Shown piece by piece: positions 6,584 to 39,540 of a DNA stretch of 64,000 bases. The notes beneath the pieces are model-generated. The model ran no database searches, had not been told where the DNA came from, and saw nothing but the letters and a program-made list of their open reading frames with translations. A program made the translations under genes and the position numbers. Numbering within the stretch: the stretch's first letter is position 1; every line of letters starts with the position of its first letter. Source of the DNA: Sedimentisphaerales bacterium (GTDB taxonomy: Bacteria > Planctomycetota > Phycisphaerae > Sedimentisphaerales > Anaerobacaceae); the NCBI GenBank assembly GCA_963708075.1, contig OY970194.1, forward strand, positions 1,504,001-1,568,000, read 5' to 3'.

Positions 6584-6826
6584 TTTTCTCCTCTCGTAGA
6601 GAGCGATGCATCACCGTTCATCGCCTGCAAGGCGAACCTGAAATACTCCCGGCGGGCGGCTCGCATACACCATCAAAGATAGCAGGACCTGTCGCGTTTG
6701 TCAATTGCGGGAACTACGTAATTTTGAGGCAGGGGACCGCTTTTCTGACCCGAGTGCGGCATAGAAGAGCCATGCGCGATACAGGTCGCGACATCAAGCG
6801 CGGGCGATGGCACGCCGCTCGCTTGA

Positions 6827-7972
6827 TCACAAGGCCTGGAGCTGGATTTCGATCTTGATCCTGCCTTCGTCGAGGCGCTGGATGTCCAGTTCAAGAGTGT
6901 CGCCGACATCGTGGCTGTCGAGGATCTTGAAGAGGTCGCCCGTGCCTTTCACCTGCTTTCCGTCGATGCCGACGATGATGTCGCCGGGGACGATCTGGCC
7001 GTCTTCATCACGCGTCGTGGGGCGCAGTCCGGCCCTTTCGGCGGCGCTGCCTTCCATCACGGAAAGAACCAGGACGCCTTCCAGGCCGAGCCGCTTGGCG
7101 ACTTGATCCTGCGCGATGCTGATCCCGAAGCCAGGCTTGGTGGCGGCGCCGGTGCGGATGATCTGCGGGACGACGCGGTTGATAGCGTCGATGGGGACGG
7201 CGAAGCCGATGCCGGCATAGGCCCCGGAAGGGCTCAGGATGGCGGCGTTGACGCCGATGACGCGACCGGCGCTGTCGAGCAGCGGGCCGCCGGAGTTGCC
7301 CGGGTTGATGGCCGCGTCGGTTTGAATGACGCCCTGGATCGGCCGTCTCGTGGCGGCCATGATCTCCCGGCCCAGGCCGCTGATGATGCCCGTCGTCAGC
7401 GTCTGGTCGAACCCGAATGGATTCCCGATGGCGTACACTTTCTGGCCCACTTCGAGCTTCTCCGATGTCCCGAGCGGAATCGGCGGCAGGAGACTCTGCG
7501 GCGCGTCGATTTTCAGAACGGCGATATCCTTGTCCGGCTCGGTCCCGACGAGCAACCCGGTCCGCACGGACCCGTCCGAGAGAGTGACACGTGCCCGCTG
7601 CGCGTTCATCATCACGTGGTAGTTCGTGACGATGTAGCCGTTATTATCCCAGATGAAGCCGGAGCCGGCGCCCTGGGGGATCTCCAGTGCCCGGAAGTTG
7701 AAGAAGTCCGTTTGCTGTACGAGGCTGGTGATGAACACGACCGACGGAGAGACGGTCTTGAATAGCGAGATTGTGCTTTGCTCGTCCGCCGCCAGCTCGC
7801 CGCGAGCCGTAATGGCGCGGGGCTCAGCCCGCTCGTTATACAGGTCGTGGAGCCAGTCCTTCGCTTCGGAGAAAAGGAGCAAGCCAACCAGAAGCAGCAG
7901 GATAATCACGAGCCAGTTGTGCGGCTGGCCTTGCCCCGGGTACATGCGTCTCTCTTTCAGTTCCATAGCCAT
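6827..7972 (-). CDS. HtrA/DegP-like trypsin serine protease with PDZ domain
   Basis: GSGFIWD, TNYHV, DIAVLKI, IQTDAAINPGNSGGPL catalytic motifs; C-terminal PDZ (SAAERAGL...GDII). Confidence 0.95.
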   Translation of the reverse strand: MAMELKERRMYPGQGQPHNWLVIILLLLVGLLLFSEAKDWLHDLYNERAEPRAITARGELAADEQSTISLFKTVSPSVVFITSLVQQTDFFNFRALEIPQGAGSGFIWDNNGYIVTNYHVMMNAQRARVTLSDGSVRTGLLVGTEPDKDIAVLKIDAPQSLLPPIPLGTSEKLEVGQKVYAIGNPFGFDQTLTTGIISGLGREIMAATRRPIQGVIQTDAAINPGNSGGPLLDSAGRVIGVNAAILSPSGAYAGIGFAVPIDAINRVVPQIIRTGAATKPGFGISIAQDQVAKRLGLEGVLVLSVMEGSAAERAGLRPTTRDEDGQIVPGDIIVGIDGKQVKGTGDLFKILDSHDVGDTLELDIQRLDEGRIKIEIQLQAL

Positions 7973-8630
7973 TTTCTCGGTTCTCCACTCTTTGTTCGGG
8001 CCTCACGGGGTCCGGAATCATCGTGCGATTCTCTGGTCCTTCCATGGACCATGTGCACTGCGACCGAAGAGTTCATCGTTTGGGTGGCACGGGCAAACAA
8101 GTTGGATGCGTCCCATCCTCAAGATTTCACGTCTACCGCTGGGCTGTCCCAGGCATTGTCTCGTACAGGAGCATAAAGCCACCAATGGCACACCTCTACA
8201 GGCTTCTCCCTGATTTGAAGGCAGGTAATGACAACCCCCGGGGTCCCATGCAGGCGGCACGGAGTGATACACCACTTCAATAGTATGGTATCTCTCCATG
8301 GCGCCGAGGCGACCATCCCTCGCGTCAGCCAGTCCTATGCCCATCAAAGAGGAAAAAAAGAGAGAGCGCCGTCATTCAAGATGCGGGTAAACATGGCCTC
8401 TGGCTCGAAATTCGAGGACCCTACTAAAATAATAGGCATAGTGGGGAATTTTACTGATCTCCTGATGTCACTGTACCGTATAATAGTGTCAGCGAAGGGA
8501 CTCGCATGTCGGGTGAATTCCCATGCATGGACTGGGGTATTTGGGGTAGGTGAATGACCATCAGGAATCTGAGCTAACGAAGTCCGGCTGGATGCATGGC
8601 TTCATGTAGTCCCTGGGGAGGGCGCTGTCG

Positions 8631-10052
8631 ATGCTGTTCAACTCCTACACGTTTGTCGTGTTCTTTCTGGTTGTGCTGGCTGGCTATTACCTCACGCGGT
8701 CGTGGACAGCTCGAAAAGGCATCCTGCTGGCGGCCAGCTACGTGTTTTACGCCGCTTGGAATCCCCCATTCGTCATTCTTCTTTGGTTCTCCACGGTCGT
8801 GGATTGGCTTGCCGCCAAGGGCATACACGCCAGTTCCTCCCAGCGCAGGCGCCGACTGCTCATGGCGGTCAGTCTCGTGGCCAATCTGGGTCTCCTGGGA
8901 TACTTCAAGTACGGCGGATTCCTCGTGGACAATTTCCTTCTGCTGATGCAGGCCCTCGGCCTGCATGTCTCGCTGGCCACGCCGAACATCATCCTGCCGG
9001 TCGGCATCTCCTTCTATACGTTCCAGACACTGTCGTACACGCTGGACGTGTACCGCCGTGACATCACACCGCCGGACTCGTTCCTGGATTACGCTCTCTA
9101 TGTCACTTTCTTCCCTCAACTTGTAGCCGGCCCGATCATTCGCACAGCCGACTTCCTGCCCCAGTGCGCAGAGCCCAAGCCCTTCTCCGGCAGGGCCATG
9201 GGATGGGGGCTGTGCCTGATGCTCCTGGGACTCTTCGAGAAAGTGGCGGTTGCGGACGGCATCCTTGCGCCGATTGTCGAGGCTGTCTATGACACAACCG
9301 ACCGCCCCGATCTCATCAGCGCCTGGTGCGGCACGTTCGCCTTTGCCGGCCAGATCTTTCTGGATTTCGCCGGTTATTCGCTGGTTGCCATCGGAACCGC
9401 GTTGTGCCTGGGTTTTGTCATCCAGGACAACTTTCGATTCCCCTATGCGGCCGTGGGCTTCTCCGACTTCTGGGGACGCTGGCATATGTCCCTATCGTCA
9501 TGGCTTCGGGACTACCTGTACATCCCGCTGGGCGGCAGCCGGAAAGGCCCTTTCAGGACTCTCGCCAGCCTGATGATCACCATGCTGCTCGGCGGCCTCT
9601 GGCATGGCGCCTCCTGGACGTTCGTGATCTGGGGCGGCTTGCACGGACTCTACCTTGTGTTGGAACGAGGCATCAGGAAGATCGTCCCGTGGCATTTCGG
9701 GAGTGGATCCATCGCCCAGGCGCTGATTGCGTTGTTGACGTTTCTGCTTGTCTGCGTGGCGTGGGTGTTCTTCCGGGCCCATTCGTTCGGCCAGGCGTTC
9801 GATGTTACCGCCGCTCTGTTCGGGTTCGGCTCCCCTGAGGTTGTGCGTCTTTTGAAGCCCGAATCCGTCGTCCTGTCGGTCGCCGTGACACTCATTCTGC
9901 TGAGCGTGCATTGGTTCATGAGAGATGCCTCGATCGCGTCGATTGTCACCCGGGTCCCGTGGTGGGTCAGGTCGCTGGCATTGGCCGCCCTGGTGCTCGG
10001 GATCATCGGATTATCAGGAGAAGACCGTGCGTTCATCTACTTTCAGTTTTAG
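8631..10052 (+). CDS. MBOAT family O-acyltransferase (AlgI/DltB-like)
   Basis: MLFNSYTF start, LPVGISFYTFQ, FFPQLVAGPI, FWGRWHMSLSSWLRDYLYIPLGG, GLWHGASWTF, C-terminal FIYFQF. Confidence 0.95.
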   Translation: MLFNSYTFVVFFLVVLAGYYLTRSWTARKGILLAASYVFYAAWNPPFVILLWFSTVVDWLAAKGIHASSSQRRRRLLMAVSLVANLGLLGYFKYGGFLVDNFLLLMQALGLHVSLATPNIILPVGISFYTFQTLSYTLDVYRRDITPPDSFLDYALYVTFFPQLVAGPIIRTADFLPQCAEPKPFSGRAMGWGLCLMLLGLFEKVAVADGILAPIVEAVYDTTDRPDLISAWCGTFAFAGQIFLDFAGYSLVAIGTALCLGFVIQDNFRFPYAAVGFSDFWGRWHMSLSSWLRDYLYIPLGGSRKGPFRTLASLMITMLLGGLWHGASWTFVIWGGLHGLYLVLERGIRKIVPWHFGSGSIAQALIALLTFLLVCVAWVFFRAHSFGQAFDVTAALFGFGSPEVVRLLKPESVVLSVAVTLILLSVHWFMRDASIASIVTRVPWWVRSLALAALVLGIIGLSGEDRAFIYFQF

Positions 10053-20411: not shown

Positions 20412-20486
20412 TCGGGGCGAGTGGATTCGAACCACCGACCTCTTGGTCCCGAACCAAGCGCTCTAGCCAAGCTGAGCTACGCCCCG
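20412..20486 (-). tRNA. tRNA-Pro (CGG)
   Basis: Reverse complement CGGGGCGTAGCTCAGCTTGGCTAGAGCGCTTGGTTCGGGACCAAGAGGTCGGTGGTTCGAATCCACTCGCCCCGA; anticodon loop TTCGGGA; CCA not encoded. Confidence 0.97.
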
Positions 20487-20501: not shown

Positions 20502-20530
20502 AAGATAACATTATCGGCGAAGGAGTGCAA
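20502..20530 (-). promoter_or_regulatory. Putative sigma70 promoter of tRNA-Pro
   Basis: TTGCAC-17 nt-TATCTT just upstream of the tRNA. Confidence 0.55.
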
Positions 20531-20531
20531 G

Positions 20532-22923
20532 TTATAACAGGTTCACCGGGTCAATATCAATAGCAATTTTTACAGCGGGTCGAATTGGCTTGTCGGACCG
20601 GAGGATGGTGAAGAGCTGTCGCATGCTGCCGGCGTCGGGGGTCTGGACGATGATCTGGATGCGGTGGAATCGCTCGATGCGACTGATTACGGCGGGCATC
20701 GGGCCGCGGATTTTCGCGTGCAGCCGCTGCTGCTGGACGATGGCATCGAGCCGCTGCCGCAGGGCGTTGGCCGCCGCCTCCAGCTTCTCGTACTTCTGAT
20801 CCCGCAGCACAACGATCGCCAGCCGCCAGCTCGGCGGCAGGTCGCACGCCTGCGCGGTGCTTCATCTCCTCCCGCACGAACCCCTCGAAATCCTGCACCA
20901 TCGCGAACTTGACCGCCGGCTGCTCCGGAAAGTACGTCTGCACGAACACGACGCCCCTTTTCTCGGACCGCCCCGCCCTGCCGGCCACCTGCGACGTCAG
21001 TTGAAACGTCCGCTCATTCGCCCGAAAGTCCGGCATATACAGGCACGTATCCGCGCTGACCACGCCGACCAGCGTCACGTTGGGAAAGTGCAGCCCCTTG
21101 GCCAGGATCTGCGTCCCCGCCAGGATATCGATCTTCCCCTGCCCAAACTCCCTGAGCAGCCGATAGTAATCCTGGCTCGCCATCGAATCGCTATCCACCC
21201 GCGCGACCCGCGCCTGCGGGAACCTGCGTCGCCAGCTCCTCCTCCAGCCGTTGCGACCCGACGCCGATCATGGTCATCCGCTTGCCGCACAGCGGGCAAT
21301 CCCGCGGCACCAGCGTCTGGGCCATGCAATAATGGCACATCGCGTACCCCTGCTCCATATGCTTGCCCGTGACCGTAGTCATATGTCGCCGAGCGGCGTC
21401 GGCGTCTTGTGAAACGTCAGCGACGCATCGCAATTTCGGCACTGCAGCGTGTGCTTGCATGACGAGCAGAACACGAAATTGCTGTACCCGCGCCGGTTCA
21501 GCAGCAAAATCGCCTGTTCCTTTCTCGCCAGCATCTGCGGCAGCTGCTCCACCAGCGGCGCGCTCAGCAGATCCAGCGGATGCTCCTTCAGCGCTGCTGT
21601 CCCGCATATCCACCAGCCTCATCTCCGGCATGGGCAAGTCCATCACCCGCTTCGGCAGCCGCACCAGCGAAAAGCTCTCCCGCGTTTGGCAGTTGTGCAG
21701 CGTCTCCAGCGACGGCGTCGCACTTCCCAGCACGCAATGCGCCCCGGCAAGCTGGGCCCGTTTGATCGCCACATCCCGCCCATGATATCGCGGCGCCGTA
21801 TCCTGCTTATAGCTCGGCTCGTGCTCCTCATCCACGACGACCAGCCCCAGCGTTCCGACCGGCGCAAAGATCGCCGATCTCGCCCCGATGACCACGTCCG
21901 ATCTCCCCCGCCCTGATCTTCTGCCACTGCTGGTTTCGCTGACCCGGACGTCAAACCCGAATGCAGCACCGCGACTCGCTCAAACCGGGCACTGAATCGC
22001 TGCACCGTCTGTGCGGTCAGCGCAATCTCCGGCAGCAGCACGATCGCCGCCTTGCCCTTGCGCACGACCTGCTCGATCGCCCGGATATAGAGCTCGGTCT
22101 TGCCGCTGTCGGTCACGCCGTGCAGCAAGGTCACGCCGAATCGCCCGGTATCGATCTGCCGCGAGAGATGGTCCATCGCATTGCGCTGGTCCTCATTGAG
22201 CGTAACCTCCTCCGCCTCGCTGCTCATCCCCTCAGGCACGACCGGCAGATCCCGTGAGCACCTTCTTCTCCACGATCCGGATGACCTGCTCATCGGCCAG
22301 GTTCTTGATCGTCGCCACGCGGCAATCGGCCTCCGTCAGCAGTTCCTCCAGCCCGACCGCCGACTCCGGCGGAGACCGCCTGACGCTTCCGCAGTACCGC
22401 CACCAGCTTCCTTCTTCTTCGGCCCTTTGACCGCATCCAGGACTTCGTCCGACATGGCCAGGTAAACATACCGCCGCCTCTTCACCCCCGCCCCTCGCTT
22501 CACCGCCCCCGGCACCATCGCCGACAGCACCTGCCCCAGCGGGCAGACGTAGTAATCGCTGATCCACCCGGCCAGTTCCATCAACTGCGGCCCCAGCAAA
22601 GGCTCCTCATCCACCACGCGCCTGACGGACTTGAGCCCCCCGCCTTCGCCCTTGCCGCCAAAAGCCCTCTCCGCCGGCACATCCGACTCGACGCAAAAGC
22701 CCATCTCCAGCTTGTTGCTCTTGCCGAACGGCACCTCGACCCGCCGCCCCACCTCGATCGGCCAGAACTCGTCCGGCACAAGGTAATCGAACTCGGCGTC
22801 CGCCCCCGACGACTCCACCGCCACCCGGATCACATGCGAGCCGCAAGGCTCCTCAGCCTTCCGACGCGAGAAATCGTCCGACGTATCCACGAACAGACTT
22901 GACGTTACTTCTTTACCAGCCAT
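20532..22923 (-). CDS. priA: Primosomal protein N' (appears split by many indels, probably sequence errors)
   Basis: Fragments across frames: FDYLVP/RVEVPFG, LHGVTDSGKTELY, LLPEIALT, VDEEHEPSYKQD, LGSATPSLE, Zn-finger Cys pairs, GTQILAKGLHFPNVTLV, QVAGRAGRS, IDIDPVNLL. Confidence 0.92.
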
Positions 22924-23129
22924 AGCTTATAGCGTATTCCTAATACCTCCCGCCCGGGCGATAGAATACCGTTCCGCCCTGCCGCCAGTCAAGCAGAAGT
23001 TGCTCTTGACAGGCAATCGGATAGCAGCCAGGGAAATCGCCGGCTGTGCTACATGAACGAAGTGGACCTGGTGGACGAGGCAAAGCTGGCAGGGCGTCCA
23101 CCGAGTCCACTCCGTCCACATCATCAACC

Positions 23130-23220
23130 TACCTGCTCGATAAACATATCCGCCGCATGGAAAAGGACTTCCTCAAAGACGGCCGCCTCCGCGAACGAAT
23201 GACCCGGGCCCGCCTGGCAG
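23130..23220 (+). pseudogene. Relic C-terminus of a four-helix-bundle suffix domain protein
   Basis: YLLDKHIRRMEKDFLKDGRLRERMTRARLA resembles my recollection of the family consensus YLLDRQIxxLExxFLxEGGLRERMTRARL; flanked by GTGGAC/GTCCAC nonamer repeats. Confidence 0.65.
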
Positions 23221-23645
23221 GCGGACCCATCATTGGCTGCGCCATTTGGGTCCTTTTCGTCCCTTGTGTCCCTTGATTCACTCAGACAGAAACTCTCCTC
23301 TTCGAGAATTTGTCCCAATCTTGTCATTTTTCGATTGCCTACTCTCCGTCTGTCTGCCATCTTGCACCCACGGAAACACCATCGTGTTGTGAGGAATCGG
23401 GAATGTCCGGCACCCGTGAATTATCCAGGTTGGCAACCAGGTATGGTGCCCCTAATAAGGGTGGTCTGGTAAGCCGGCAGAGGCATTTGAAAGAGTTGGT
23501 GTCGACCAATGACTCCTCTCCGAATTGCAGAGTTCTTCATTCCACGATGCCCGTAAATAACAACGAGGCCAAATGCAGTGCGGAAGCCAACTTACGCGAG
23601 TGACGTATGTCTTATTCCGCAAGATCGCAGGAAAGGAGAGAGACT

Positions 23646-24788
23646 ATGCTTTATTATGTCGAGGGGAGCGCCATCCTCACCGAAGAGGAAGTTCTGGAGG
23701 CAAGAACGTTGGAACGATTGTCCACGTTCTATCGTGACTTGGCGGCAGGGAAGAAACCGAAACGGCTGGCTTTCTCGACCGGGGAACTGACGGCGGACAA
23801 TGCTGTTATGGGCCCCGGCCCCAAGGAGACAGCGGTCGAGTGGAAACCGATCGGCCTCGGCTTGCCGTTCACGGTGATGATCAGAGAAGTCTATACGGGC
23901 AAGTTTCCTCAGAAAGGGCTTTTCGGCGGCAAGAAAGGCTTCCTCATCACGTCCGCCATCAAGAGCATTGTCTTTCAGGGTGCGCAGCCGCGCGCGGTCA
24001 ACTACTTAGCGGAAGACATGTCCCCCCGGACACATACGGAGCGTCCCTCCGCAACGTCGCCCGGGACGCCCGTGGTGTTCTACTCGCCGGCCGTAATCGA
24101 AAGATCGTTAACCCTGGACCTCACAATGATATTCGACACCTTCCCTCAGGAGGCGTTCAATCAGGTTGCTGAGGGATTCAACGCTGCGGGGGCTATACCG
24201 GTCTTCCAGGTGTACAGCACCTACATTCTGGCCGCCGGGCAGCTTGTCAAACTCTTTGGAAGAGCAGGCGAGGCCATCTTTGATGGCAAGCCGGCGTTCT
24301 CCTCTTCCGACCCGCTCGACGTCTACCTGCCGGGCTCTCCTCCGCTTCGTGCGGGCTTCCGCCTGATTACCAGCGGGAATGTGGATTCTATCGACAAGGA
24401 TTTCCGCGCCAAGTACCAGATCAACGATCTGGGCAAGGTCGTGGATAGTTCCGGAAACCAATATGATGGCGACGTCCCCTACGTTGTGATCAGCGTTGAC
24501 GGCACTCTGCAGGAAGAGTTGACGTCTTTCGTCCCAAGCGCTGCCGGCACGGCGATCATGTCACGTTTCTTCGGCATCAAGGACGGACAACAACAGCCTG
24601 TGAATATGGTGATCGACGCGATCAAGCTGTACAATGACCTGGAATACCGCCGCGAGGTAGATCGGTTGGACAGGCGACTGAAAGAACTGCCCGCAGGTGA
24701 CCCGGACAGAGTGAACATCGAGAAAAGAAGAAATGCCATGGCCACCAATATCATCGAGGATCTCCTGAAACCCAAGGCAGAGGCATAG
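23646..24788 (+). CDS. Hypothetical cytoplasmic protein (~380 aa)
   Basis: Strong RBS GAAAGGAG before ATG 23646; intact ORF; no family recognised. Confidence 0.8.
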   Translation: MLYYVEGSAILTEEEVLEARTLERLSTFYRDLAAGKKPKRLAFSTGELTADNAVMGPGPKETAVEWKPIGLGLPFTVMIREVYTGKFPQKGLFGGKKGFLITSAIKSIVFQGAQPRAVNYLAEDMSPRTHTERPSATSPGTPVVFYSPAVIERSLTLDLTMIFDTFPQEAFNQVAEGFNAAGAIPVFQVYSTYILAAGQLVKLFGRAGEAIFDGKPAFSSSDPLDVYLPGSPPLRAGFRLITSGNVDSIDKDFRAKYQINDLGKVVDSSGNQYDGDVPYVVISVDGTLQEELTSFVPSAAGTAIMSRFFGIKDGQQQPVNMVIDAIKLYNDLEYRREVDRLDRRLKELPAGDPDRVNIEKRRNAMATNIIEDLLKPKAEA

Positions 24789-24879
24789 AGTCACTGCCAA
24801 GAGAATGAAAGCCGGCTTTTGAATCGACGGTGACGCAGCGAGTTCGTTTGGCCAGAGCCAGACGGACTCGCTGTCAAGC

Positions 24880-25062
24880 CATGGGACAGGTTACGCATTT
24901 CGGGAAGTCGCCGTGCAATGCTCACGACAGCTGCGTCTGCTACCAGAAACTCGAGGACAACATCGAATTCATAAAGACCAAAGGGATCTCCGCTTTCGTG
25001 AAGAGCCAGCAGTCGAAAGAGGAATTGATAGCCGCCATGCTGGACGAATTCAACGAAGGCCG
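24880..25062 (+). pseudogene. Truncated fragment resembling DUF3795-type proteins
   Basis: HDSCVCYQKLEDNIEFIKTKGISAFVKSQQSKEELIAAMLDEFNEGRS ends exactly where the direct repeat at 25062 begins; family call from recall. Confidence 0.45.
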
Positions 25063-25190
25063 ATCATCTTGGATGACATCACTTTTGATAGGGGTGCCGC
25101 ATTGTGGACAGACGATGGCGGTAATGGTACTCTCCGCGGCAGAACCGTGCTATCCGCTGTAAAGCGGCGGAGGGCATGGGGTCCCCAGAC
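25062..25190 (+). repeat. Diverged direct repeat, left copy (right copy 32221-32350)
   Basis: gatcatcttggatgacatcactt identical in both copies, with continued similarity (ccgcattgt...gacag...taatggtactctc). Confidence 0.85.
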
Positions 25191-25208
25191 TTCCGGGCCC
25201 GGACTGTG

Positions 25209-25811
25209 CTAGACTCGCCTCAGCCTGATCCCGGCATAGCCCAGCCCGAGCATACCAAGCAAAGCGGCGCCGGGGAGCGGGACGGGTACAGGAGCCGCCG
25301 GGAAGCTGAAATGGACGGGCAATTCGCCCAGCGCCTGAGGTATGGGATAGAACTGTCCATCGTTCGGATTGTACACCACAGGCCATGCATCAACGTGGAT
25401 CTCACCCAGCCCATGTGCCACGACATCATACGTCCCTCCGACGGGCACATCGGTCCCGGTGGGTCGTACCATCAGCATACAGGTAGCGATCTGCACGTCT
25501 GACATACCCGCATAATCGATAAAGTAATGGCTGGCGATGCTGGAAACATGTACGGCAATGACTGTCGAATCGTCGCCTGGCCCCACAGTCGCAGGATCTA
25601 TCGAAACGCTGTAGTTCCCGTTAAGGACGCCAGTCTTCGATATACTCGCCGAGAAGACCGCCTCGAAATTCGTGGTAATAGTGCCCAATGTTGCGCCGGC
25701 CAATGAGGTTTCGTCGACCCGCTGACAAACGATCTGTGAGAGATCGCCAAAGACAGGCCCGGCGGCCCATACGATCACAGTCGAAATCAGAAAAGCTCTC
25801 CCCAGTCTCAT
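25209..25811 (-). CDS. PEP-CTERM-like (VPLPGA) exosortase target protein
   Basis: Signal peptide MRLGRAFLISTVIVWAAG; C-terminal PVPLPGAALLGMLGLGYAGIRLRRV. Confidence 0.85.
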   Translation of the reverse strand: MRLGRAFLISTVIVWAAGPVFGDLSQIVCQRVDETSLAGATLGTITTNFEAVFSASISKTGVLNGNYSVSIDPATVGPGDDSTVIAVHVSSIASHYFIDYAGMSDVQIATCMLMVRPTGTDVPVGGTYDVVAHGLGEIHVDAWPVVYNPNDGQFYPIPQALGELPVHFSFPAAPVPVPLPGAALLGMLGLGYAGIRLRRV

Positions 25812-26487
25812 TTCCCGCTCCTCCAACCAAATGCTATGTCCGAGCACACTGGCCATGGGCGCAACAAACGGCCCACAGTCACGCAATGTCTCTGTGAATG
25901 CGCTCCATCAGGTGAGTCAATCCACGCATGCCCGCCGGCACTCCGTATGCCGGGGTCGCCCGTCCTTGGGATACTGCTCCGCTTTGCTCCCTAAATAGCC
26001 TCAATTGCCCAAATTGTCAGGTGACGGGTAGCCGATGTCAAGGAGAAAAATAAATTTCTGTGCACTTTTCTCGGATTCGTGGGTGACCCTACGCCCTCCT
26101 ATCAGGCCCCTGTCGCTCTGTTTTTGGTCCTTAACCAAGTTGGAGAAGGAATCAAGGCAGTCTGTCGGCGTATTAGAAGCTTAACGGATCGCAAATAATC
26201 ACTGATCAATTCAAGGGCCCGTGCCCGCCTCGTTGGGACACTTATTCCTTTTTTTCTCTTGCTCGCTCCGCGTCCGGCCGCCATAATGCCCCCAGAGAGA
26301 CACCCTTGATGAAGCTGCGACAATGCTTGAGGTCCAGCCGGCGTGGCCGGATGCGGTGAGGCTGTAATCAGCAGCATCTCCGCGAGATCTCGAGTCACGA
26401 GAGAAGACAAGACAGGGCAATGATGCGATGGGAGACTGTTGCGGTTTCCCTGGCAGCATGTATCAGCCCCATGCGGAGTGGTTTCTT

Positions 26488-28122
26488 ATGAGCATGACCA
26501 CGTTCGACGCTTTTCTCAGTTACAGCCGCAAGGACGGGAAGGAGGCTGCTGCGCTCAAGAAGGAACTTGAGCAGCGTGACCTGCGCATCTGGTTTGATGA
26601 GACTCAGATCGTGCCGGGAGATCGCTGGCAGTCGAAGATGGAGGAGGGCTTCAAGAACTCGAATGCCGTCCTTTATCTGTACGGGCCTTCGGGGACCGGG
26701 CCGTGGCAGGAGGTGGAGCGCTTCCTGGCGCTCACTCTGGAGGTCACGGAGAACAAGAGACTCATCCCCATTCTGCTCCCCTCCGGCAAGACTCCCGACG
26801 ACTTGCCCATGCTCCTGCGGGGACTGGCGTGCGTGAGCTTCGAGAAAAGTGTCTCCGAGCGCGGCGTGCTGGACAGCCTTGTCCATGCGATTACTGGTCA
26901 ACGGCCGGAATCTGCCAAACCGCCGCCACCAGAGCCGGTATCGCCGGAGCCGGTGCCGACGCGAGGCACGAAGGTTGACCCAGGGCTGCGTAGACAAGCA
27001 ATCAGGAACCTTGCGGGGGCGCTCGCATCAGGTCCGGTCACCTTCTTCCTGGGTCCCAACGCGTCACCCGGGCGAGACGACTCCTACCCTCCGTGTGCCA
27101 GTGAGGTCACGGGCCGCCTCATGCGGGAATCTGAGTTGATCAAGGACTGCCCCAAGAATCCCCCGTGCTTTCCCCGAGACGTGGCCTGCGACTACTTCTG
27201 CGTCCAGCAATCCAAGCAACTCCTCGAGGACGAGGTGGCCGCGGTGATCCAGAAACACAGTCGTCAGATCCCGCTTGTATACGAGAAACTTGCAGGCCTT
27301 CTGGCGAAGACGCTCCAGACGAGGGGCACCACTCAGCGACACCACAAGCATCCCCAGCTCGTGGTGACCACGAACTTGGACGTTCTCATGGAACGGGCTT
27401 TGTTGCGACAGCGGATTCCCTTCACCCGGCTCGTCGTGAACTTGACCGAGCGCACGATGGAGATCAACCAGTATTGGGAGGAACAGACACAGAACGGACC
27501 GGAGAAAGGCAAAATCGTGCTCGCTACGGATCTCCGCCAAGACGCGGGTGACGAGAAGCTTGACGAGTTCATCCGCGACCATGGGCGATCTCTTTTCGAC
27601 CCCAGCCACAGGGATGACGAGAGAGAAGGCGACAACTCGCCCGAGGGGCCGGAGGGCCAGCCGATCGTCAGCGAGTTGCCTCCACTCGATCCCGCGCCGG
27701 TCCTGATGAAGTACTGCGGTTCAGTGGACCTGCCGGGCACCTGTACCCTATCGAGCGAACAGGCAATGCAGATCGCTGCCGCGGGGGTGGACATGCCGTC
27801 AGGGATCGGGGCCATAATCAACAACACCCCTTGGCTCTTCCTCGGCTATGGACTTTTCGATCCGGAGTTGCGCCTCCTCTGCCATACCGTGCTGCGAGAG
27901 TCTCGGAACACCCCGGCCAGACAGCGCGACGCCCGCTATGCTGTCCTGCCCCACCCCGCCGACGATCCGTTCGACACGGCGCGCCAGATGGAAATCCCCA
28001 TCTGGGAAAACGTCAAGGCACGCTGGACCGACTGGCGCAGCGGCACGCACTTTGTCGAGTCGCGTATCGACACCTTTCTCGACGACCTCGTGAAGGAACT
28101 CTCCAGGGTGAGCGGCCAATGA
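26488..28122 (+). CDS. TIR domain - SIR2-like domain fusion protein
   Basis: TIR: FDAFLSYSRKD, IWFD, PGDRW, GPWQEVE, LIPILLP; SIR2-like: TFFLGPNAS, LVVTTNLDVLMERAL, LMKYCGS, LFLGYGLFD. Confidence 0.88.
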   Translation: MSMTTFDAFLSYSRKDGKEAAALKKELEQRDLRIWFDETQIVPGDRWQSKMEEGFKNSNAVLYLYGPSGTGPWQEVERFLALTLEVTENKRLIPILLPSGKTPDDLPMLLRGLACVSFEKSVSERGVLDSLVHAITGQRPESAKPPPPEPVSPEPVPTRGTKVDPGLRRQAIRNLAGALASGPVTFFLGPNASPGRDDSYPPCASEVTGRLMRESELIKDCPKNPPCFPRDVACDYFCVQQSKQLLEDEVAAVIQKHSRQIPLVYEKLAGLLAKTLQTRGTTQRHHKHPQLVVTTNLDVLMERALLRQRIPFTRLVVNLTERTMEINQYWEEQTQNGPEKGKIVLATDLRQDAGDEKLDEFIRDHGRSLFDPSHRDDEREGDNSPEGPEGQPIVSELPPLDPAPVLMKYCGSVDLPGTCTLSSEQAMQIAAAGVDMPSGIGAIINNTPWLFLGYGLFDPELRLLCHTVLRESRNTPARQRDARYAVLPHPADDPFDTARQMEIPIWENVKARWTDWRSGTHFVESRIDTFLDDLVKELSRVSGQ

Positions 28123-30221
28123 CAACAACGACTGGAAACGACTCCAATCTCGGTCCCTACAAAGGGCCTGACAGCTACGAGATACGCGATGCCCTGCTTT
28201 TCCAGGGTCGTGAGCGGGAGGCTCGCGATCTGGTTTCGCTTGTCCTGTCCGCACGGCTGTCCTTGCTCCACGCCGCCTCGGGGGCCGGCAAGACATCGCT
28301 CCTGAACGCCCGCGTGCAGCCCGGTCTTGCCGCACTGGGCTGGCTTCCGATCCGCGTGCGTCCCGGCTTCAACCCGGTTGAAGCCATCAAGGTCGAGACG
28401 CTCAAGCGAGTCTTCGTCTGTCCAGTGCTCGAAGTCCAGGCCGTGGAGCGAGCCCGCCATGAGCTTGGTCTCGCGGACGATGTGTATCTGGGTGATCTGC
28501 TGTGCAGGTACCGCGAACTCCCTGTCTCCGACGACCGCAAGCGCACACTGCTCGAACCGCTTCCGAGCCCTGTTCAAGGCTTCGGCAAGATCTCGCCGTT
28601 CTGCTGTGCATGGCTCCAGGAAATCATCGACGACGCCACGTTCGCCGATTACATACAAGCCGTCCTCGCCGAGAGTAGCGGACTCGACGGCAGGATCGGC
28701 GGCGACACGACGCTGGACGCGTTTGTGAAGTTGCTCTCAAGCCCGGAAGCCGACCGGTGCTACCGCACTGTGCTTGCGAAAGTGAACGTCCCCGCGATTG
28801 GGCTGGCGCCCTTCTTCGACAATCTCTTCGCCGTACATGGGAGTCGGCCGCCGAAGCTCTCCCTGGTGCTGATCCTCGATCAGTTCGAGGAGTTGTTCAC
28901 CCGCTTCACGGACCCCGGGCCGCCGCCGCCGGACGCGCCGGAAGAGCTGCTCAGGAGGCGTCGCGAGCAACCGGATTGGCGACTGCGGCTGCGCTTTTTC
29001 GAAGAGCTTGAACAGATCTACCGCAGCGGAGGATCATGTGAACGCAGCTCGAACAGCGTCCTGCCCATCCGGTATCTGATTTCGCTGCGCGATGACTACA
29101 TCGCAAAACTCGATCCATTGCGGAGGTTCGTTCCCGAACTCGATCGGTCAGCGTATCACCTGGAGATGCTCGGCCGGCAAGAGGCAGCCCTGGCGATCCG
29201 CGAGCCGGCAGACCAATACGGCTACCGATACTCCAACGAGCTCTTTCAGCGGATCATTGAAGAGCTCACGCGGGAGGGACGTTACATCGAACCCGCCCAC
29301 CTCCAGATGGTCTGTGACAAGCTCTGGCGGGAGAGCGGCCGCGAGCTCTCCCGGAGAGCATATACCGATGGCTCGAACGCCGGCGAGATGTCTGTGACCG
29401 TGTTGAACGATCTACAGGGGACGCAGGGTATCTTCGATTCCGTGCTGACCGACTTTCTGAACGCCAATCTCGCGAGCGACGCTCAGCGGAATGAGGCCAT
29501 CGAGCTTCTGGAACCCCTCATCACATGCAGCTACACGCGAAACATCGTGGAGCGGGATAGTCTGGTCCACGCGCCCTTGAAGGACGCCGGGCTGCGCGCC
29601 GAGATTCTGGAGAAGCTCGAACGCGGGCGGATCGTCCGCGTGGAGACCCGCAACGACGGCTACTTCGTCGAAATCACCCACGAGTTCCTCATCCCTGCGA
29701 TCATGAAGCGCACGCGTGCCTTGCGATCCAATGCACAGCACGCTCACCGGAGCACTGCCATCCTCAGCATGTCCCGCCTGAGGGACAGGAATCTGACCGG
29801 CAGAACCTCCAACCTGCTATCGGAGCGCGAGTACGAGGCCCTCGATGAGGTCAGGGAGGGCCTCAAGTGGCCGGACTGGGGCATCGAGGTCATGCTGCGC
29901 AGCGCGATGGGTGTCGGCGGAGGCCCCGAGGCCATCCTCTACTGGGCGAATCGTTTCGAAACCGAGTGCAGCGTGCCGCCGATCGACGACCTGCGCGAGC
30001 GCATGAAGAGTCTGGCCTCAGATGAGTGTTGGCTTAACCTCGAGGAGTTGGCGCTCCTGCTTGCCCATGACCGGAAAGCCCCGGACGCAACGCTGCCGAG
30101 GCGGGACTGGTCCGACAAGGAACTTGACCTGATCCTGCGCAGCATTCTTACGGGAGCCGATGAAACCCGCGAGGCAGACGTCATCCACTGGACATTGCGA
30201 CATGGAGACACGCATGCGTGA
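28119..30221 (+). CDS. nSTAND1-like P-loop NTPase
   Basis: PYKGPDSY...FQGRERE, Walker A AASGAGKTSLLNA, Walker B LILDQFEELFT, ISLRDDY, PAHLQMVCDKLW, VEITHEFL; ATGA overlap with upstream stop. Confidence 0.9.
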   Translation: MTTTTGNDSNLGPYKGPDSYEIRDALLFQGREREARDLVSLVLSARLSLLHAASGAGKTSLLNARVQPGLAALGWLPIRVRPGFNPVEAIKVETLKRVFVCPVLEVQAVERARHELGLADDVYLGDLLCRYRELPVSDDRKRTLLEPLPSPVQGFGKISPFCCAWLQEIIDDATFADYIQAVLAESSGLDGRIGGDTTLDAFVKLLSSPEADRCYRTVLAKVNVPAIGLAPFFDNLFAVHGSRPPKLSLVLILDQFEELFTRFTDPGPPPPDAPEELLRRRREQPDWRLRLRFFEELEQIYRSGGSCERSSNSVLPIRYLISLRDDYIAKLDPLRRFVPELDRSAYHLEMLGRQEAALAIREPADQYGYRYSNELFQRIIEELTREGRYIEPAHLQMVCDKLWRESGRELSRRAYTDGSNAGEMSVTVLNDLQGTQGIFDSVLTDFLNANLASDAQRNEAIELLEPLITCSYTRNIVERDSLVHAPLKDAGLRAEILEKLERGRIVRVETRNDGYFVEITHEFLIPAIMKRTRALRSNAQHAHRSTAILSMSRLRDRNLTGRTSNLLSEREYEALDEVREGLKWPDWGIEVMLRSAMGVGGGPEAILYWANRFETECSVPPIDDLRERMKSLASDECWLNLEELALLLAHDRKAPDATLPRRDWSDKELDLILRSILTGADETREADVIHWTLRHGDTHA

Positions 30222-32155
30222 CACACTGGCCCTGATCGAGGAATTTCTAAGTTCATCGCAAGCTACGCACATCCGCTGTAACGCGAGCACCGCGCTTGGG
30301 CGCTCTCCTCTGACCCTGCTGCGGATCATCGCGACCGCAGCAAGGCCAGTATGGAACGGCTGGCCCTCATCGCGGTAAGCGATCCGTCCAGGGAGGTGCG
30401 CGACCATGCGGTCGACATCCTCCGCCGCGCCGCTGCCGGCAACCGTGCGCCGGAGGTGGTGCAGGCGGCCGTGGAGAAGCTGAACGAGACAACAAAGCCT
30501 GACGTGCGGCGCCGCGTCTACTCGCTGCTTGGCCAACTGCGAGCAGAGGGTATCACAGGGGCCCCAAGCGGTTCTCGGGGCTTCACTCCGGCGGCTGAGA
30601 ATGATTGCCTCGATCAAGTGCCTCCCGGACGCGGAAGTGAAACAGAGCTTCCAGTGGCGCCCTATATGGCTGGCGGCTGCCGGCACGCTGCCGGGCGCCT
30701 TTGTTCTCGCTCTCCTGGCGTTCCTCTTCGCTGCTCCGCTGACGTCGGAGGTGGTGCCCGCGCTGCTCATTTTTTCGCCGCTCGTGGGTGCGGGTTCTCA
30801 GCCTTGTCGCTACGCAACAAGCCATCCCCATAGGACTGCACTACGACCGTCTTGCCGGCGGCCTGATGGCAATTGTCCGCGCCGTCATGTGGTCGGTCCT
30901 GCCTTCCTTTCTTCTGGCGGCATTCATGTTTTCTGAGGCCCCCTCTTCCGCTCGCGTGTTTCCTGTCTGTCTCGCCAGTGCCTTGACGCTACCCATCGTG
31001 CTGGCTTCGGTGAAACTCGGGTCACTTCTCGCTCACGGGATCACGGCAAGGCCGTGGATAGCCTTGGGTGTACATGCCGCATCGGGTACCGCAGTCGGAC
31101 TCATCACTACCCTCGCTCTCGCCTGGCGATACCCTTCTCTCACAGACGAGACGGACTGGCCAGAAGTGATCTACTTGTGCTGGGCGATCCTGAGCCCCGC
31201 GATCGTGGGTCTGGCCGTGGCCTTCGCCGATATTGAGAGTCGGTCCGTACCACCACGGCGCGGCGCGGGCTGGGCGCGCACCTCGGTCGTCGTTTTGTCC
31301 GGCCTGGTCTGCGCGTACCTCCTCATCAAGCCCATCGGGCTCCGCCTCATGGAGCCCGTCCCGAGAGAGGACCTCTCCACAGTTCTAGCCGGGCGGCCAA
31401 TGCGCCCCATCGAAACAAGATTCGACCGGATGCTCAGCACTGACTCCGTACAGATCCTGGTCAGCGACAAGGGCTTTCCGCTCCACCGTCTGGATGCGAA
31501 TAGAGAGCCGACCGTGCGCTCGACGGGCCCCGAGAAAGGCAGGAACTTGGTGCCAGTGCACAGACTGTCCATGGGCAGGGTCTTCTGGCTACTGCAACCG
31601 GGTCGCTACCTGCTGCGCCTGACCAGCGCATCCGGCACAACGGATCTCACGGATCTGTTCCCGAGGCTATCCAATCCAACGGCATCCAGTGATTACATTA
31701 GAGCCATCTCGCTGACGCTGAATCCTCTTGGCGCCCAGGAGATAAGCCGAAATCCGGAGGTCTCACCCCGCGAGGCAGATCCCAATGGAACTACAGTCGT
31801 GGTATGGAAAACCAACCCCAAGAGGTTGCCTCTCGATGTCTCGTTCGAAGTCAGCCTCCCGCGGCAGGATATCTATGTCAGTCTATCGGATCCCGATCCC
31901 GAAGGCTACACCTCGCGCCTACTAAGGGTGACGCTGCTGGACAGCCAGAAACGCGACGTTGCCAACCGGACCGACCCGCCCTCGTTTGCACGCAGACTCT
32001 CGGAACCGGGCAAGTACAACCTCGTAACTGATTTCTCTGATTCCACCTACCGGTATGTGCCAGACTTCCCGACCGAACTGATCCTTATTCTTGGCGTCGA
32101 CGAGGCAACTCTGCAACTGCTGGAGGCCGCGATAGAGGGACGGTCGGCACGATAG
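30214..32155 (+). CDS. HEAT-like repeat plus multi-TM membrane protein with C-terminal soluble domain (three apparent frameshifts)
   Basis: Contiguous ORF pieces 30214-, 30351-, 30529-, 30788-32155 joined by single-base shifts; DPSREVRDHAVDIL and PDVRRRVYSLLG HEAT-like units; roughly 8 hydrophobic segments; GGAG RBS and ATGCGTGA overlap. Confidence 0.7.
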
Positions 32156-32220
32156 CAGAGCAGCGCGGCCCTGACGCCCTTTTCGATGATTCGCGCGGTT
32201 CGTGGTTTCGCTTTGGCCCT

Positions 32221-32350
32221 GATCATCTTGGATGACATCACTTCTGATATGGGCGCCGCATTGTTGACAGGCGGTGACGATAATGGTACTCTCTCCACCG
32301 GAATCGTGCCGTCCGTCGTAAGATCGCCGACGGCACGAGGCGCTCAAACT
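32221..32350 (+). repeat. Diverged direct repeat, right copy; contains a TTGACA-17-TACTCT promoter-like site
   Basis: Similarity to 25062-25190; ttgaca ggcggtgacgataatgg tactct upstream of the beta-barrel gene. Confidence 0.8.
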
Positions 32351-32369
32351 GGGGTCGGGGAGATGCATC

Positions 32370-33113
32370 ATGATGAAGAGGAGCACGCTTGCCGGTGGGT
32401 TGGTCGTGTTGTTCATGTCTGGCGCCGTGTACGCCCTGGATCCGCTGGGGCCTCCCAAGGCCATTGTCGGCCGAAACAACTGGAGCCTGGGCGTCGACTA
32501 CGCCTTCAGCGACACGGACTCGGAGTTGAGCAACGTCGTCTTCGACGGCGCGCCTGTGCGCGATCTCCCAAGCAAGGGGTTCAAAGCCAACAGGGCATAT
32601 GCAACTCCGCGATATGGAGTGCTGGACAACCTTGACATATTTGGACGGATCGGGGCTATCGCTTTGGTGGAGTCCCCTATTTTGAGGCTTGAACCCTTCG
32701 TTGGGGATGTCGGATTAGCGTGGGGCTTCGGAGCGGCGATGACGCTCTATGATTCCGACCGGCTCGACTGGGGTGTCGTCGCACAATGGAGCCGGAGTCG
32801 AACCGAGGAAGACCAGTTTGGCATCACCGCGCATATTCACAGGGAGTTGGAGGTTGACTCGCTTCAGATCGCCACGGGCCCAACGTATCAGATCCGGGAG
32901 GACTTGGATCTCTACGGCGGAGGCTTCTATCATGCCCTCGATGGCGAATTCGAGGACCCATTGGCCCAGTTCGACATGGAGGAGGACAACTCCCTTGGCG
33001 GATTTGCGGGTCTGGACTGGGCGGTCAAGGAGGACGTTCACTGGTTTCTGGAGGCGCAGAGCACCGGCTCCGCTTCTGCCGCAGCGACCGGCCTCAAATG
33101 GCTCTTCCGATAA
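32370..33113 (+). CDS. Outer membrane beta-barrel protein
   Basis: Signal peptide, alternating beta-strand pattern, C-terminal GLKWLF. Confidence 0.8.
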   Translation: MMKRSTLAGGLVVLFMSGAVYALDPLGPPKAIVGRNNWSLGVDYAFSDTDSELSNVVFDGAPVRDLPSKGFKANRAYATPRYGVLDNLDIFGRIGAIALVESPILRLEPFVGDVGLAWGFGAAMTLYDSDRLDWGVVAQWSRSRTEEDQFGITAHIHRELEVDSLQIATGPTYQIREDLDLYGGGFYHALDGEFEDPLAQFDMEEDNSLGGFAGLDWAVKEDVHWFLEAQSTGSASAAATGLKWLFR

Positions 33114-33191
33114 ACCCGGCCCGCCCGGTCAGGACGATAGTCGGCCGACCTTCCGCTGGCGGCTCGTGTCGGGAGCAAAACGGGATGGTCT

Positions 33192-33270
33192 GGGTGCCAT
33201 GCTTACGCTCGCGTGAGCATGCCTTGCTCATCGAGTGGAACATGTCTATGCAAGCGTAGACATGGCACCC
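33192..33270 (-). repeat. REPIN-like 79 bp element, copy 2 (inverted)
   Basis: Reverse complement matches 18165-18243 with few mismatches. Confidence 0.9.
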
Positions 33271-33300
33271 GCTGCCCGGAATTCTGAGATCGTGGGGAAA

Positions 33301-38317: not shown

Positions 38318-39540
38318 CAGGGCTATCGCATCTAAATGCCAAGGACCTTAAGCAGGTAGTCTCGGTCCCAGCCGGCTCGGAGGCGTTTGGCGGCGATGCC
38401 GCCCTTGGCCGTCTTCTCCTGCTTGAGCAGCATCAGGGCGATTCGACGCAATCGCGAGAAGTTCTCGGCGGCGTTGGCCACTCGGACTCGACTGGCGTCC
38501 TCATGGAAACTCACGTCCAGCGACCAGTGCAACTGGACCTCCACGGACCAGTGATGGCGAATCAATGTCCCCAGACGCTGGGCACAGTGTCCCGGATGGG
38601 AGCTGATGAAGTAGTGTCGCTTTCGTTCGCACTGGCCGTTGACCTGACGCTCTCGCTCGATGGCCGTGAGGCTGCCCAGACCCGGCCAGTCGTGACGCCC
38701 TTGCAGCCATCCCACATCGCTGGTAGTCCACACCCGGCGGGTTTCCAGTCGTCCATGGCCTTTTTCCACGGTTTCCCAGAAGTCCTGCTCGCCGGCAAAC
38801 CCGTGGGCGATGCCGTCCTCCATGTACATCCGGGCATCCTCGTACAGAGTCCCTTGGTTAGCCTTGAGGGCCAGCACATAGTCGCCGCCCTGATCGACGA
38901 TCTGCTCGGCGATCTCCTTTTGACAACCCATGGCGTCAATCGTGATGGTTGCCTCCTCCACGTCGAGCAGCTTGAGCAACTCCGGGATCGCGGTGATCTC
39001 ATTGCTCTTGGCATCGACCGCCCGTTGGCCGAAAGCCACGCAGTTCTCGTGGACCCAGGCACTGACCATGTGCAACGGGCCTTTGGCACGGACCCGATCA
39101 AAGCTGTTTCGCAGGGTCTTGCCGTCGATGGCGATGTGCTTGCCCCGGCTGCTGCCGGCCAGATCCGCCACAAACGCCTGCATGACCGCTTCAAACGCAT
39201 CCGGGTCCAGGGCGGCAAAGACCCGACCAAAGGTATCATGCGATGGAATGCCATTGGGCAGGTCCAGAAACGTGCCAAACCATTCCTCGTTGACGTTGCC
39301 GAACATCTCTACGTCCGTCCAGTGCTCAGCCCCGCAGATCACGGCACAGACGCCAATGACCAGAATATCCTGTAATTCATGCCGTTTCGTCCGCTCCACG
39401 CGAGGATCAGGAACCGCGGCAAAATGATCCCAAATCGACTTGCTCATCAAGAACGTATTCCTCTCTAATCTGAGTGTCTTGCTTCTGAGAAGAATACGAA
39501 ACCACACCTACAAAGGCTCAATTTAGATGCGATAGCCCTA
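38318..39540 (-). mobile_element. ISAs1 family insertion sequence, complete
   Basis: 19 bp perfect terminal IR agggctatcgcatctaaat (38319-38337) / atttagatgcgatagccct (39521-39539); 8 bp target duplication ATTGGGGT at 38310-38317 and 39541-39548. Confidence 0.95.
38332..39447 (-). CDS. ISAs1 family transposase
   Basis: [74 protein letters not shown]. Confidence 0.97.

Follow-up and report, generated by a model that had tools for sequence, protein, structure and literature searches.

A candidate STAND-centred conflict operon in a Sedimentisphaerales bacterium combines a TIR–SIR2-like protein, a soluble nSTAND1 NTPase and a separate membrane protein

In a 64,000-nt stretch of the genome of a Sedimentisphaerales bacterium (assembly GCA_963708075.1, contig OY970194.1, positions 1,504,001–1,568,000; hereafter the window), we analysed three co-oriented genes on the + strand at 26488–32155, encoding a TIR–SIR2-like protein (gene 1), an nSTAND1-family nucleoside triphosphatase (NTPase; gene 2) and a multi-transmembrane (TM) protein with HEAT-like units (gene 3). 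The operon is real and conserved and is unnamed within the material searched, where it is a hitherto undescribed form of STAND-centred conflict system. At the level of sequence, the linkage of the genes, the NTPase motifs, the retention of the TIR glutamate, the loss of the SIR2 histidine and the union of genes 2 and 3 in one chain in relatives are established. On balance, we favour a reading in which a membrane sensor would trigger an NTPase oligomer that activates cleavage of nicotinamide adenine dinucleotide (NAD+) by the TIR domain, making the operon a mobile, probably anti-phage and abortive counterpart of a nucleotide-binding leucine-rich repeat (NLR) receptor divided over three chains.

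The locus is compact (5.7 kb) and each gene occurs once in the 7.5-Mb genome. A first-pass annotation had described the genes as translationally coupled, and both overlaps are indeed present in the sequence, ATGA between genes 1 and 2 (28119) and ATGCGTGA between genes 2 and 3 (30214). PADLOC gave no system match for the operon, and PADLOC and NCBIfam returned only partial TIR matches, in line with the earlier view that the architecture has no name.

Gene order, fusions and distribution

Besides the window, five loci (L001–L005) provide DNA context for the gene 2 subfamily. All three genes stand in the window order in L001, a Candidatus Binatia metagenome-assembled genome, and in L005. In L002, genes 1 and 2 lead into gene 3, of which the first 20 codons are covered, and both overlaps recur. 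L004, covered from gene 2 onwards, has genes 2 and 3, and L003 contains gene 2 only, followed by ~250 nt without a gene 3 start. Gene 1 is therefore upstream in 3/3 relatives with upstream DNA and gene 3 downstream in 4/5. Since the same order is found in L001 and L005, and partly in L002 and L004, the co-occurrence of the three genes is not due to chance, and a conserved three-gene neighbourhood was borne out. In L001, the Binatia NTPase gene (7851–10048) is split by a frameshift near its start, which may be real or an error.

In three proteins (P0037, P0058 and P0060) the NTPase has a C-terminal extension homologous to window gene 3 (E 1e-5 to 1e-9), and a fourth NTPase–gene 3 fusion, P0064, was recognised by profile and lies outside the profile seed set. 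In P0110, long HEAT repeats take the place of gene 3. The third gene also diverges faster than the second: between the window and L001, gene 3 is 29% identical (642 columns, E 4e-55) and gene 2 47–50%. This fast divergence and the HEAT-repeat replacement in P0110 suggest that gene 3 occupies the sensor slot. Of the split NLR-like layout proposed in the first-pass annotation, the division into chains is supported by the fusions P0037, P0058 and P0060, whereas the assignment of SIR2 as an effector had to be revised, as set out below.

Relatives of gene 1 form 104 clusters (50% identity, E ≤ 1e-30), mostly full-length TIR–SIR2 proteins of ~520 aa. Of 8000 candidates scored against gene 2, 249 are relatives at E ≤ 0.001. 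The best 120 are 35–75% identical, 116 of the 120 are 544–741 aa long, and named sources include Accumulibacter, Acidobacteriota and Binatia. The flanks differ among carriers, DNA homology between the window and L002 starting at 26390, which is consistent with mobility of the operon. The gene 2 subfamily had no plasmid match, phages and viral contigs being outside that search. Conflict-type neighbours occur in L001 (TPR-S-patatin and lipase), L004 (MoxR and vWA) and L005 (EAD1-trypsin, trypsin and metallophosphoesterase).

The three proteins and the wider SIR2-like to nSTAND1 module

Gene 1 combines the two folds that had been ascribed to it, with Pfam matches to TIR_2 at aa 9–121 (E 2e-20) and SIR2_2 at aa 396–499 (E 1.6e-12). 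The TIR WxxxE motif is retained, as previously reported, in the form WQEVE (W73–E77). In an alignment of 88 selected full-length homologues, Glu77 was kept in 88/88, and the best PDB matches of the TIR profile, Cat1 TIR and the NAD(+) hydrolase AbTIR, aligned at the catalytic Glu. In the SIR2-like domain, the catalytic Asn is present as N296 in TTNLD (TTNxD motif), the counterpart of which is N133 in DSR2 (PMC10981675, in excerpt), and the KxHG motif reads KYCG, with the catalytic His replaced by Cys410. Among the 88 homologues, 37 keep this His and 51 have L, R, Y, C, Q or F; Asn and His occur together in 21. On a quick tree, 15 changes are needed, at least 7 of them forced by well-supported branches. 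Cys410 aligns with the position that differs between PDB entries 9v0g (KFHG) and 9v12 (KFAG), a His to Ala change, and H171A reduces the NADase activity of DSR2 (PMC10981675, in excerpt). Other positions of the SIR2-like domain are invariant (K408, G411, S412 and E302) or nearly so (D298). Since the SIR2 His has been lost while the TIR Glu is invariant, TIR is probably the catalytic part of gene 1 and the SIR2-like domain probably a docking module. SIR2 is thus probably not the second NADase that had been proposed, given the Cys in the window and the repeated loss of the His across the family. A complex prediction for gene 2 (aa 1–545) with the gene 1 SIR2-like domain (aa 160–544) scored 0.16 against a mark of 0.32.

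In gene 2, nSTAND1 (PF20703) is the sole Pfam family (E 3e-35; 123 bits against a curated cut-off of 27.1). It begins within the first ~12 residues, with no N-terminal effector domain fused, Pfam found neither WD40 nor TPR, and the protein has no TM segment. An nSTAND1-type NTPase without a WD40/TPR tail is what the first reading of the sequence had described, and its estimate of about 190 aa between the Walker motifs agrees with the 196 aa from K58 to D254. Walker A (G57, K58, T59, S60), Walker B (D254-Q-x-E-E258, including E257) and the sensor Arg (R324) are invariant in 105/105 homologues. The Walker K-to-D spacing is 191–226 aa in 115/120 subfamily homologues compared with 73–129 in 51 other nSTAND1 open reading frames (ORFs), and the insertion, of ~120 extra residues, is diagnostic of the subfamily. 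It is helical in the AlphaFold2 (AF2) model, and its residues R142, P160, R164, L166 and R167 are conserved in 97–101/105. The ~165-aa tail is made up of two helical repeats detected by hhalign (probability 97.8, E 1e-12). The AF2 model of gene 2 has a predicted local distance difference test (pLDDT) score of 91, and the solved structures nearest to it in fold are ORC/Cdc6-like AAA+ proteins (1w5s, Z 15.6, root-mean-square deviation 8.3, 335 aligned); Avs4, Avs3 and Avs5 rank below these (EfAvs5, 9jap, Z 10.6).

Window gene 3 consists of four frame segments, three of which are collinear with an intact 661-aa orthologue in L001. We checked the breaks against independent short-read contigs from four runs (X1–X4) of two studies. 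The contigs contain one more base after 30297 in 4/4 runs. At both 30572 and 30795, they lack one base of the window in run X2 only; X1 and X4 are without depth at these two sites, and X3 is without depth at 30795 and lists no difference at 30572. Because the short-read contigs are free of the breaks, the three breaks (near 30297, 30572 and 30795) are assembly errors. With X placed at each break, gene 3 is translated without a stop into 646 aa, matching the length anticipated after three single-base corrections, two of which come from X2 only.

The HEAT-like unit and several TM helices attributed to gene 3 were both recovered. HEAT_2 matches gene 3 in the window, L001, L004 and L005, although the window match (aa 4–65 of the 30351 ORF) is weak (E 2e-5, below the curated cut-off), and the unit is modelled at pLDDT 87–92 in L001 (aa 11–60). 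In the fusions, it comes directly after the NTPase, and we predict that it continues the NTPase helical tail. Hydropathy gives six clear TM segments at aa 153–376 with room for a seventh, and the L001 model has seven long helices at aa 140–363 with low confidence. That AF2 model has an overall pLDDT of 53; its fold search led to generic helical repeats only, and Atlas offered no usable match for L001 gene 3. The C-terminal domain probably faces the periplasm, as judged from the HEAT unit lying inside and four basic residues (4 K/R in 21 aa) in the loop preceding the last helix. It matched no Pfam or NCBIfam family, including the lectin-fold sensor sought by Pfam, is modelled at pLDDT < 50, and has unnamed Atlas matches at 0.75–0.76.

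Next to these relatives stands a wider module. In a metagenome scan of 80 loci, chosen by two alignment motifs and thus not a random nSTAND1 sample, a SIR2-like gene lies directly upstream of nSTAND1 in 61/77 loci with an NTPase start (L001 included), is lacking in 11, and in 5 there is too little DNA. (An initial count of 63, made with a profile into which TIR/CHAT parts had strayed, gave way to this stricter one.) Outside the gene 2 subfamily (L006–L081), the pair is found in 58/74 loci with variable effectors and sensors. Among 54 chosen ORFs scanned, the SIR2-like partners carry TIR, CHAT, trypsin or EAD7, and the C-terminal domain of the NTPases is WD40, TPR, FGE-sulfatase, pentapeptide, SH3, amidase or PPC; one protein, P0212, is EAD1-TIR-SIR2. 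We then scored TM segments within 250 aa after the NTPase in 59 nSTAND1 ORFs, dropping 6 with tails <200 aa. A TM segment follows soon after the NTPase in 48/53 of these, compared with 4/120 subfamily proteins, and those four are the fusions. Since TM segments are absent from 116/120 and usual elsewhere, the window operon is the same module with its membrane part on a gene of its own. From these comparisons, the operon is a variant or subfamily of a widespread SIR2-like to nSTAND1 pair whose NTPases are usually membrane-spanning.

The fate of the SIR2 His differs with the company it keeps. It is retained in 18/27 nSTAND1 partners without a second domain and in 2/25 with one (Fisher p 1.3e-5, although related sequences are not independent; the 61 rows gave 57 distinct ones, of which 5 cut by contig ends were set aside). 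The TIR Glu is kept in 16/21 TIR-bearing partners, with Asp in 2 and 3 unaligned. We infer that docking is what the SIR2 fold provides throughout, and that its catalysis is lost when another effector rides on it. An architectural parallel to the operon, which the gene 3 profile does not detect, is L024, where SIR2, nSTAND1, HEAT and 4 TM segments form one chain. It is followed by trypsin-SIR2 and by an nSTAND1 ORF in which a second P-loop domain and several TM segments seem to be present, the whole group occupying L024:733-3894 and 4857-9834.

Table 1. Features of the operon and its upstream region, in window coordinates
Feature	Coordinates	Strand	Basis
Gene 1, TIR-SIR2-like protein, 544 aa	26488..28122	+	Pfam domains
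TIR domain, aa 9-121, predicted NAD+ hydrolase effector	26512..26850	+	Glu77 kept
SIR2-like domain, ~aa 165-544, probable docking/scaffold module	26980..28119	+	Asn296 kept, His replaced by Cys410
Gene 2, soluble nSTAND1 NTPase, 700 aa, without TM or long sensor	28119..30221	+	Pfam, AF2
Helical insertion between Walker A and B, ~aa 101-245	28419..28853	+	Spacing, AF2 model
Two tandem ~60-aa helical repeats, tail aa 560-620 and 632-700	29796..30218	+	hhalign
Gene 3, HEAT / 6-7 TM / beta-rich C-terminal domain, 646 aa corrected	30214..32155	+	Short-read contigs, L001 alignment
Gene 3 N-terminal HEAT-like unit, predicted cytoplasmic	30214..30560	+	HEAT_2, L001 model
Gene 3 membrane region, aa 153-376, six clear, probably seven TM	30670..31342	+	Hydropathy
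Gene 3 variable beta-rich C-terminal domain, probably outside cytoplasm	31343..32155	+	No Pfam/NCBIfam match
Promoter-like repeat, ~120 bp, sigma-70-like boxes 17 bp apart, ~90-nt leader	26251..26367	+	nhmmer

Proposed mechanism and alternative explanations

In the mechanism that we favour, gene 3 would be an inner-membrane protein whose HEAT unit holds the helical tail of the NTPase. Its TM bundle or outer C-terminal domain would sense a trigger, such as envelope damage or a phage protein for entry or lysis, and thereby free the NTPase, leading to exchange of ADP for ATP and formation of an oligomer. The oligomer would recruit gene 1 via the non-catalytic SIR2-like domain, and the clustered TIR domains would cleave NAD+ and arrest the infected cell. 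The oligomerisation step is borrowed from STAND biology (PMC13581612, in excerpt), and we infer the contacts, the trigger, the direction of sensing and the defence phenotype. The same paper gives the STAND domain order as effector–NTPase–sensor, and the three-chain model is supported because the gene order equals it. The sensor role of gene 3 gains support in the same way, since the membrane-and-sensor part follows the NTPase in relatives. The operon may detect threats at the cell envelope. A more elaborate version is a three-tier surface-receptor pathway, in which a seven-helix receptor with a swappable periplasmic domain would act through a HEAT-docked STAND switch and a pseudo-sirtuin adaptor that delivers the TIR NADase; this we regard as possible but doubtful.

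Several observations weigh against these proposals. The fused proteins P0037 and P0060 end after the membrane region without an outer domain, and an external ligand-binding domain is therefore not required. Whether the topology has seven or six TM segments is judged from hydropathy and from a model whose pLDDT is 53. The SIR2 domains of L001 and L005 retain both Asn and His, so SIR2 may be active in some members, and one structure places the DSR2 His distant from the ribose (PMC10981675, in excerpt). The complete three-gene context was seen in 3 loci only, the window included, and the gene 3 database search returned its seed alone. The system is rare: the gene 2 profile finds 1/301 genomes in a sample of the window's phylum and 1/301 in one of the phylum of G301, in both cases the seed genome (G000 and G301). 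Finally, the window is not a defence island, as 3/38 surrounding ORFs have partial PADLOC matches, to housekeeping-type domains.

The direction of signalling could be the reverse, with the NTPase insertion sensing a cytoplasmic invader, a TIR-derived messenger binding the SIR2-like pocket, and gene 3 acting as a membrane effector (a pore or depolariser). Thoeris systems with membrane effectors exist and provide a model for it. In its favour, the subfamily has an insertion that is conserved and peculiar to it, SIR2 keeps K408, G411, S412, E302 and D298 as a ligand pocket might, and there are fused forms with 6 TM segments and no outer domain. However, conservation of the insertion points to a structural role more than to a variable sensor, gene 3 fills the C-terminal slot taken in relatives by WD40, TPR, FGE-sulfatase, pentapeptide and SH3, P0110 has plain HEAT repeats there, and Pfam found no SLOG or Macro domain in the operon genes; we therefore consider this direction unlikely. 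Alternatively, the operon might serve membrane signalling for envelope stress, predation or cell–cell contact, with a TIR nucleotide output, and not be anti-phage. To our knowledge, membrane sensing is unusual among tested STANDs, which we count in favour of such a role, as we do the lack of a surrounding defence island and of a PADLOC system match. STAND clades also switch between defence and non-defence roles (PMC13581612, in excerpt). Such a non-defence role is made distinctly unlikely by the patchy spread and changing flanks, by the conflict-type neighbours in L001, L004 and L005, by an upstream repeat (described below) that is shared with SIR2, restriction, PIN, toxin–antitoxin and nSTAND3 genes of the genome, and by the lack of a transcription-factor output domain in Pfam.

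The first-pass annotation had the NTPase cluster TIR and SIR2 as two active NADases. Retention of Asn296 fits this form, as do the 21/88 homologues with both Asn and His, L001 among them, but the window has Cys at the His position (the position altered to Ala in 9v12 relative to 9v0g), H171A lowers DSR2 activity, and the His is replaced in 51/88, making it very improbable for the operon. That the genes are instead a decaying or chance cluster with a gene 3 pseudogene, as the three frame breaks in the window might have indicated, is largely refuted and scarcely credible: the breaks are absent from the short-read contigs (two of the three sites resting on one run), nearby priA is also fragmented, and the orthologues are intact and syntenic.

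Surroundings and relation to known systems

The promoter-like repeat lies 120 nt upstream of gene 1 and has 35 nhmmer matches in the genome; the 34 copies besides that of the window include C1:5897052, 5900687, 6335666, 6892056, 6900400, 2913888 and 6578505 (G000). It also lies upstream of the L002 operon (L002:1041-1141). Copies are sometimes clustered and often have a Shine–Dalgarno-like GAGG followed by ATG. Many of the genes that they precede are accessory (two Dsr1-like SIR2, nSTAND3, type II restriction–modification, PIN, Gp49/RelE-like, DUF4145 and ParA-like), and there are lectin, BNR and CBS protein genes as well. From its consensus, the repeat would function as a promoter, perhaps a portable one, or it may mark the boundary of a cassette; a promoter scan did not list the site. 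Rfam had nothing at gathering score in 22900-33300, a weak match in 26200-26500 (E 1.5) was rejected, and a riboswitch or ribozyme reading was dropped, as RNAalifold gave no consensus structure. At 30 other distinct repeat sites, 9 lead to a PADLOC match, 7 of them defence-type (41/57 candidate ORFs covered), compared with the 3/38 partial, housekeeping-type matches of window ORFs as a control (Fisher p 0.025, or 0.002 by our own sorting). This association modestly supports a role in defence or another accessory function.

A 101-bp direct repeat (82% identical) at 25062-25162 and 32221-32321 brackets the operon and a PEP-CTERM-like gene (25209-25886, -), and is possibly the trace of an insertion. 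Further upstream, 1.7 kb from the operon, a single-copy 393-aa ORF (23607-24788, +) of lower GC content (0.57) had no Pfam, PADLOC or NCBIfam match. Beyond it, priA (~20530-22923, -) is broken into several frames, probably by further assembly indels, and tRNA-Pro lies at 20412-20486. Downstream, a transposase at 38332-39507 (-) has DDE_Tnp_1 and DDE_Tnp_1_assoc domains and presumably belongs to the ISAs1 family. Elsewhere in the genome (G000:C1:6596569-6603157), a TIR ORF overlaps a 1384-aa ORF with a weak nSTAND1 match and adjoins an ATPase gene on the other strand, forming a second candidate STAND locus.

No operon of this form is described in the literature searched, most subscription papers being outside its scope, nor in the parts consulted of PMC7159879, 10.1101/2023.09.22.558884, 10.64898/2026.10.19.760177, 10.1101/2024.10.26.620412 and PMC12700824. 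The Accumulibacter accessions of gene 2 homologues are absent from 7 supplements of PMC13581612 and from 12 of 13 of PMC8195603; the remaining supplements, including those on bioRxiv, could list the clade.

The NTPase belongs to the family of the nSTAND1 counter-invader systems (Kaur, Iyer, Burroughs and Aravind 2021, PMC8195603; PF20703), defined in the excerpted text by lectin-fold (FGS) sensors and fused N-terminal effectors or EADs. As in those systems, there are links to TIR and, in relatives, to EAD adaptors, namely EAD1-trypsin beside the L005 operon and EAD1-TIR-SIR2 in P0212, and Pfam found no EAD adaptor in the three window genes. The PMC8195603 passages describe neither the Walker insertion nor a separate HEAT-TM subunit, both present here, and no SIR2-to-nSTAND1 operon was found among the SIR2 matches listed in its supplements (all 8 in file 1 and, in each of files 3, 4 and 6, the first 2). 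With Avs5 (AVAST type 5; PMC11897194 and PMC12931631, in excerpt) the operon shares SIR2 and a STAND NTPase, but Avs5 is one chain with a SIR2 effector and a C-terminal sensor, and here there are three chains. The SIR2 and STAND parts belong to two ORFs that share an ATGA overlap, the SIR2 no longer has its His, and a TIR and a membrane subunit are added. Gene 2 also lacks the fused N-terminal effector and the long C-terminal repeat sensor of single-chain Avs and NLR proteins. Avs1, the three-gene AVAST type 1, is a STAND system with effectors partly on separate genes, having nuclease/protease partners and a STAND chain that carries a large cytoplasmic repeat sensor; we know of no TIR, SIR2-like adaptor or membrane subunit in it.

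TIR and SIR2 folds are also common to Thoeris (ThsA SIR2 and ThsB TIR; 10.1101/2024.10.26.620412, in excerpt). Unlike Thoeris, the operon has them fused and centres on a STAND NTPase; gene 1 had no ThsA/ThsB match in PADLOC, Pfam showed no counterpart of the SLOG or Macro sensor of ThsA, and NCBIfam ThcB4 scored 21.6 bits against a cut-off of 220. SIR2-HerA, a SIR2 oligomer with a separate P-loop ATPase, is a precedent for SIR2 docking on an ATPase (PMC11472057, in excerpt), although here the ATPase is AAA+/STAND (nSTAND1, ORC/Cdc6-like) in place of HerA/FtsK, and the SIR2 is degenerate. The operon also resembles the SIR2-like to membrane-spanning nSTAND1 pair, which has the same genes in the same order and likewise loses the SIR2 His where there is a second effector domain. 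The window operon differs from it in its N-terminal TIR, soluble NTPase and separate polytopic membrane protein, and in the ~120 extra residues of the Walker interval and the two-repeat tail.

In the sources consulted in part, tested bacterial STAND receptors recognise phage proteins via a fused sensor. A 2026 survey clustered sensors of at least 400 aa only (PMC13581612, in excerpt), and a short-tailed NTPase with a separate membrane subunit therefore falls outside its sensor analysis. If our reading is correct, the operon would be a compact test case for whether STAND immunity can be triggered through the membrane and whether catalytically eroded SIR2 domains serve as adaptors between NTPase oligomers and interchangeable effectors (TIR, CHAT, trypsin). 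Each step is separately testable, given one gene per part and the existence of natural fusions. If the three-tier version were also true, NLR machinery would be gated from outside the cytoplasm, with a receptor–NTPase–effector logic like that of G-protein-coupled receptor or Toll-like signalling, and the degenerate SIR2 fold would be a general effector adaptor of nSTAND1 NTPases.

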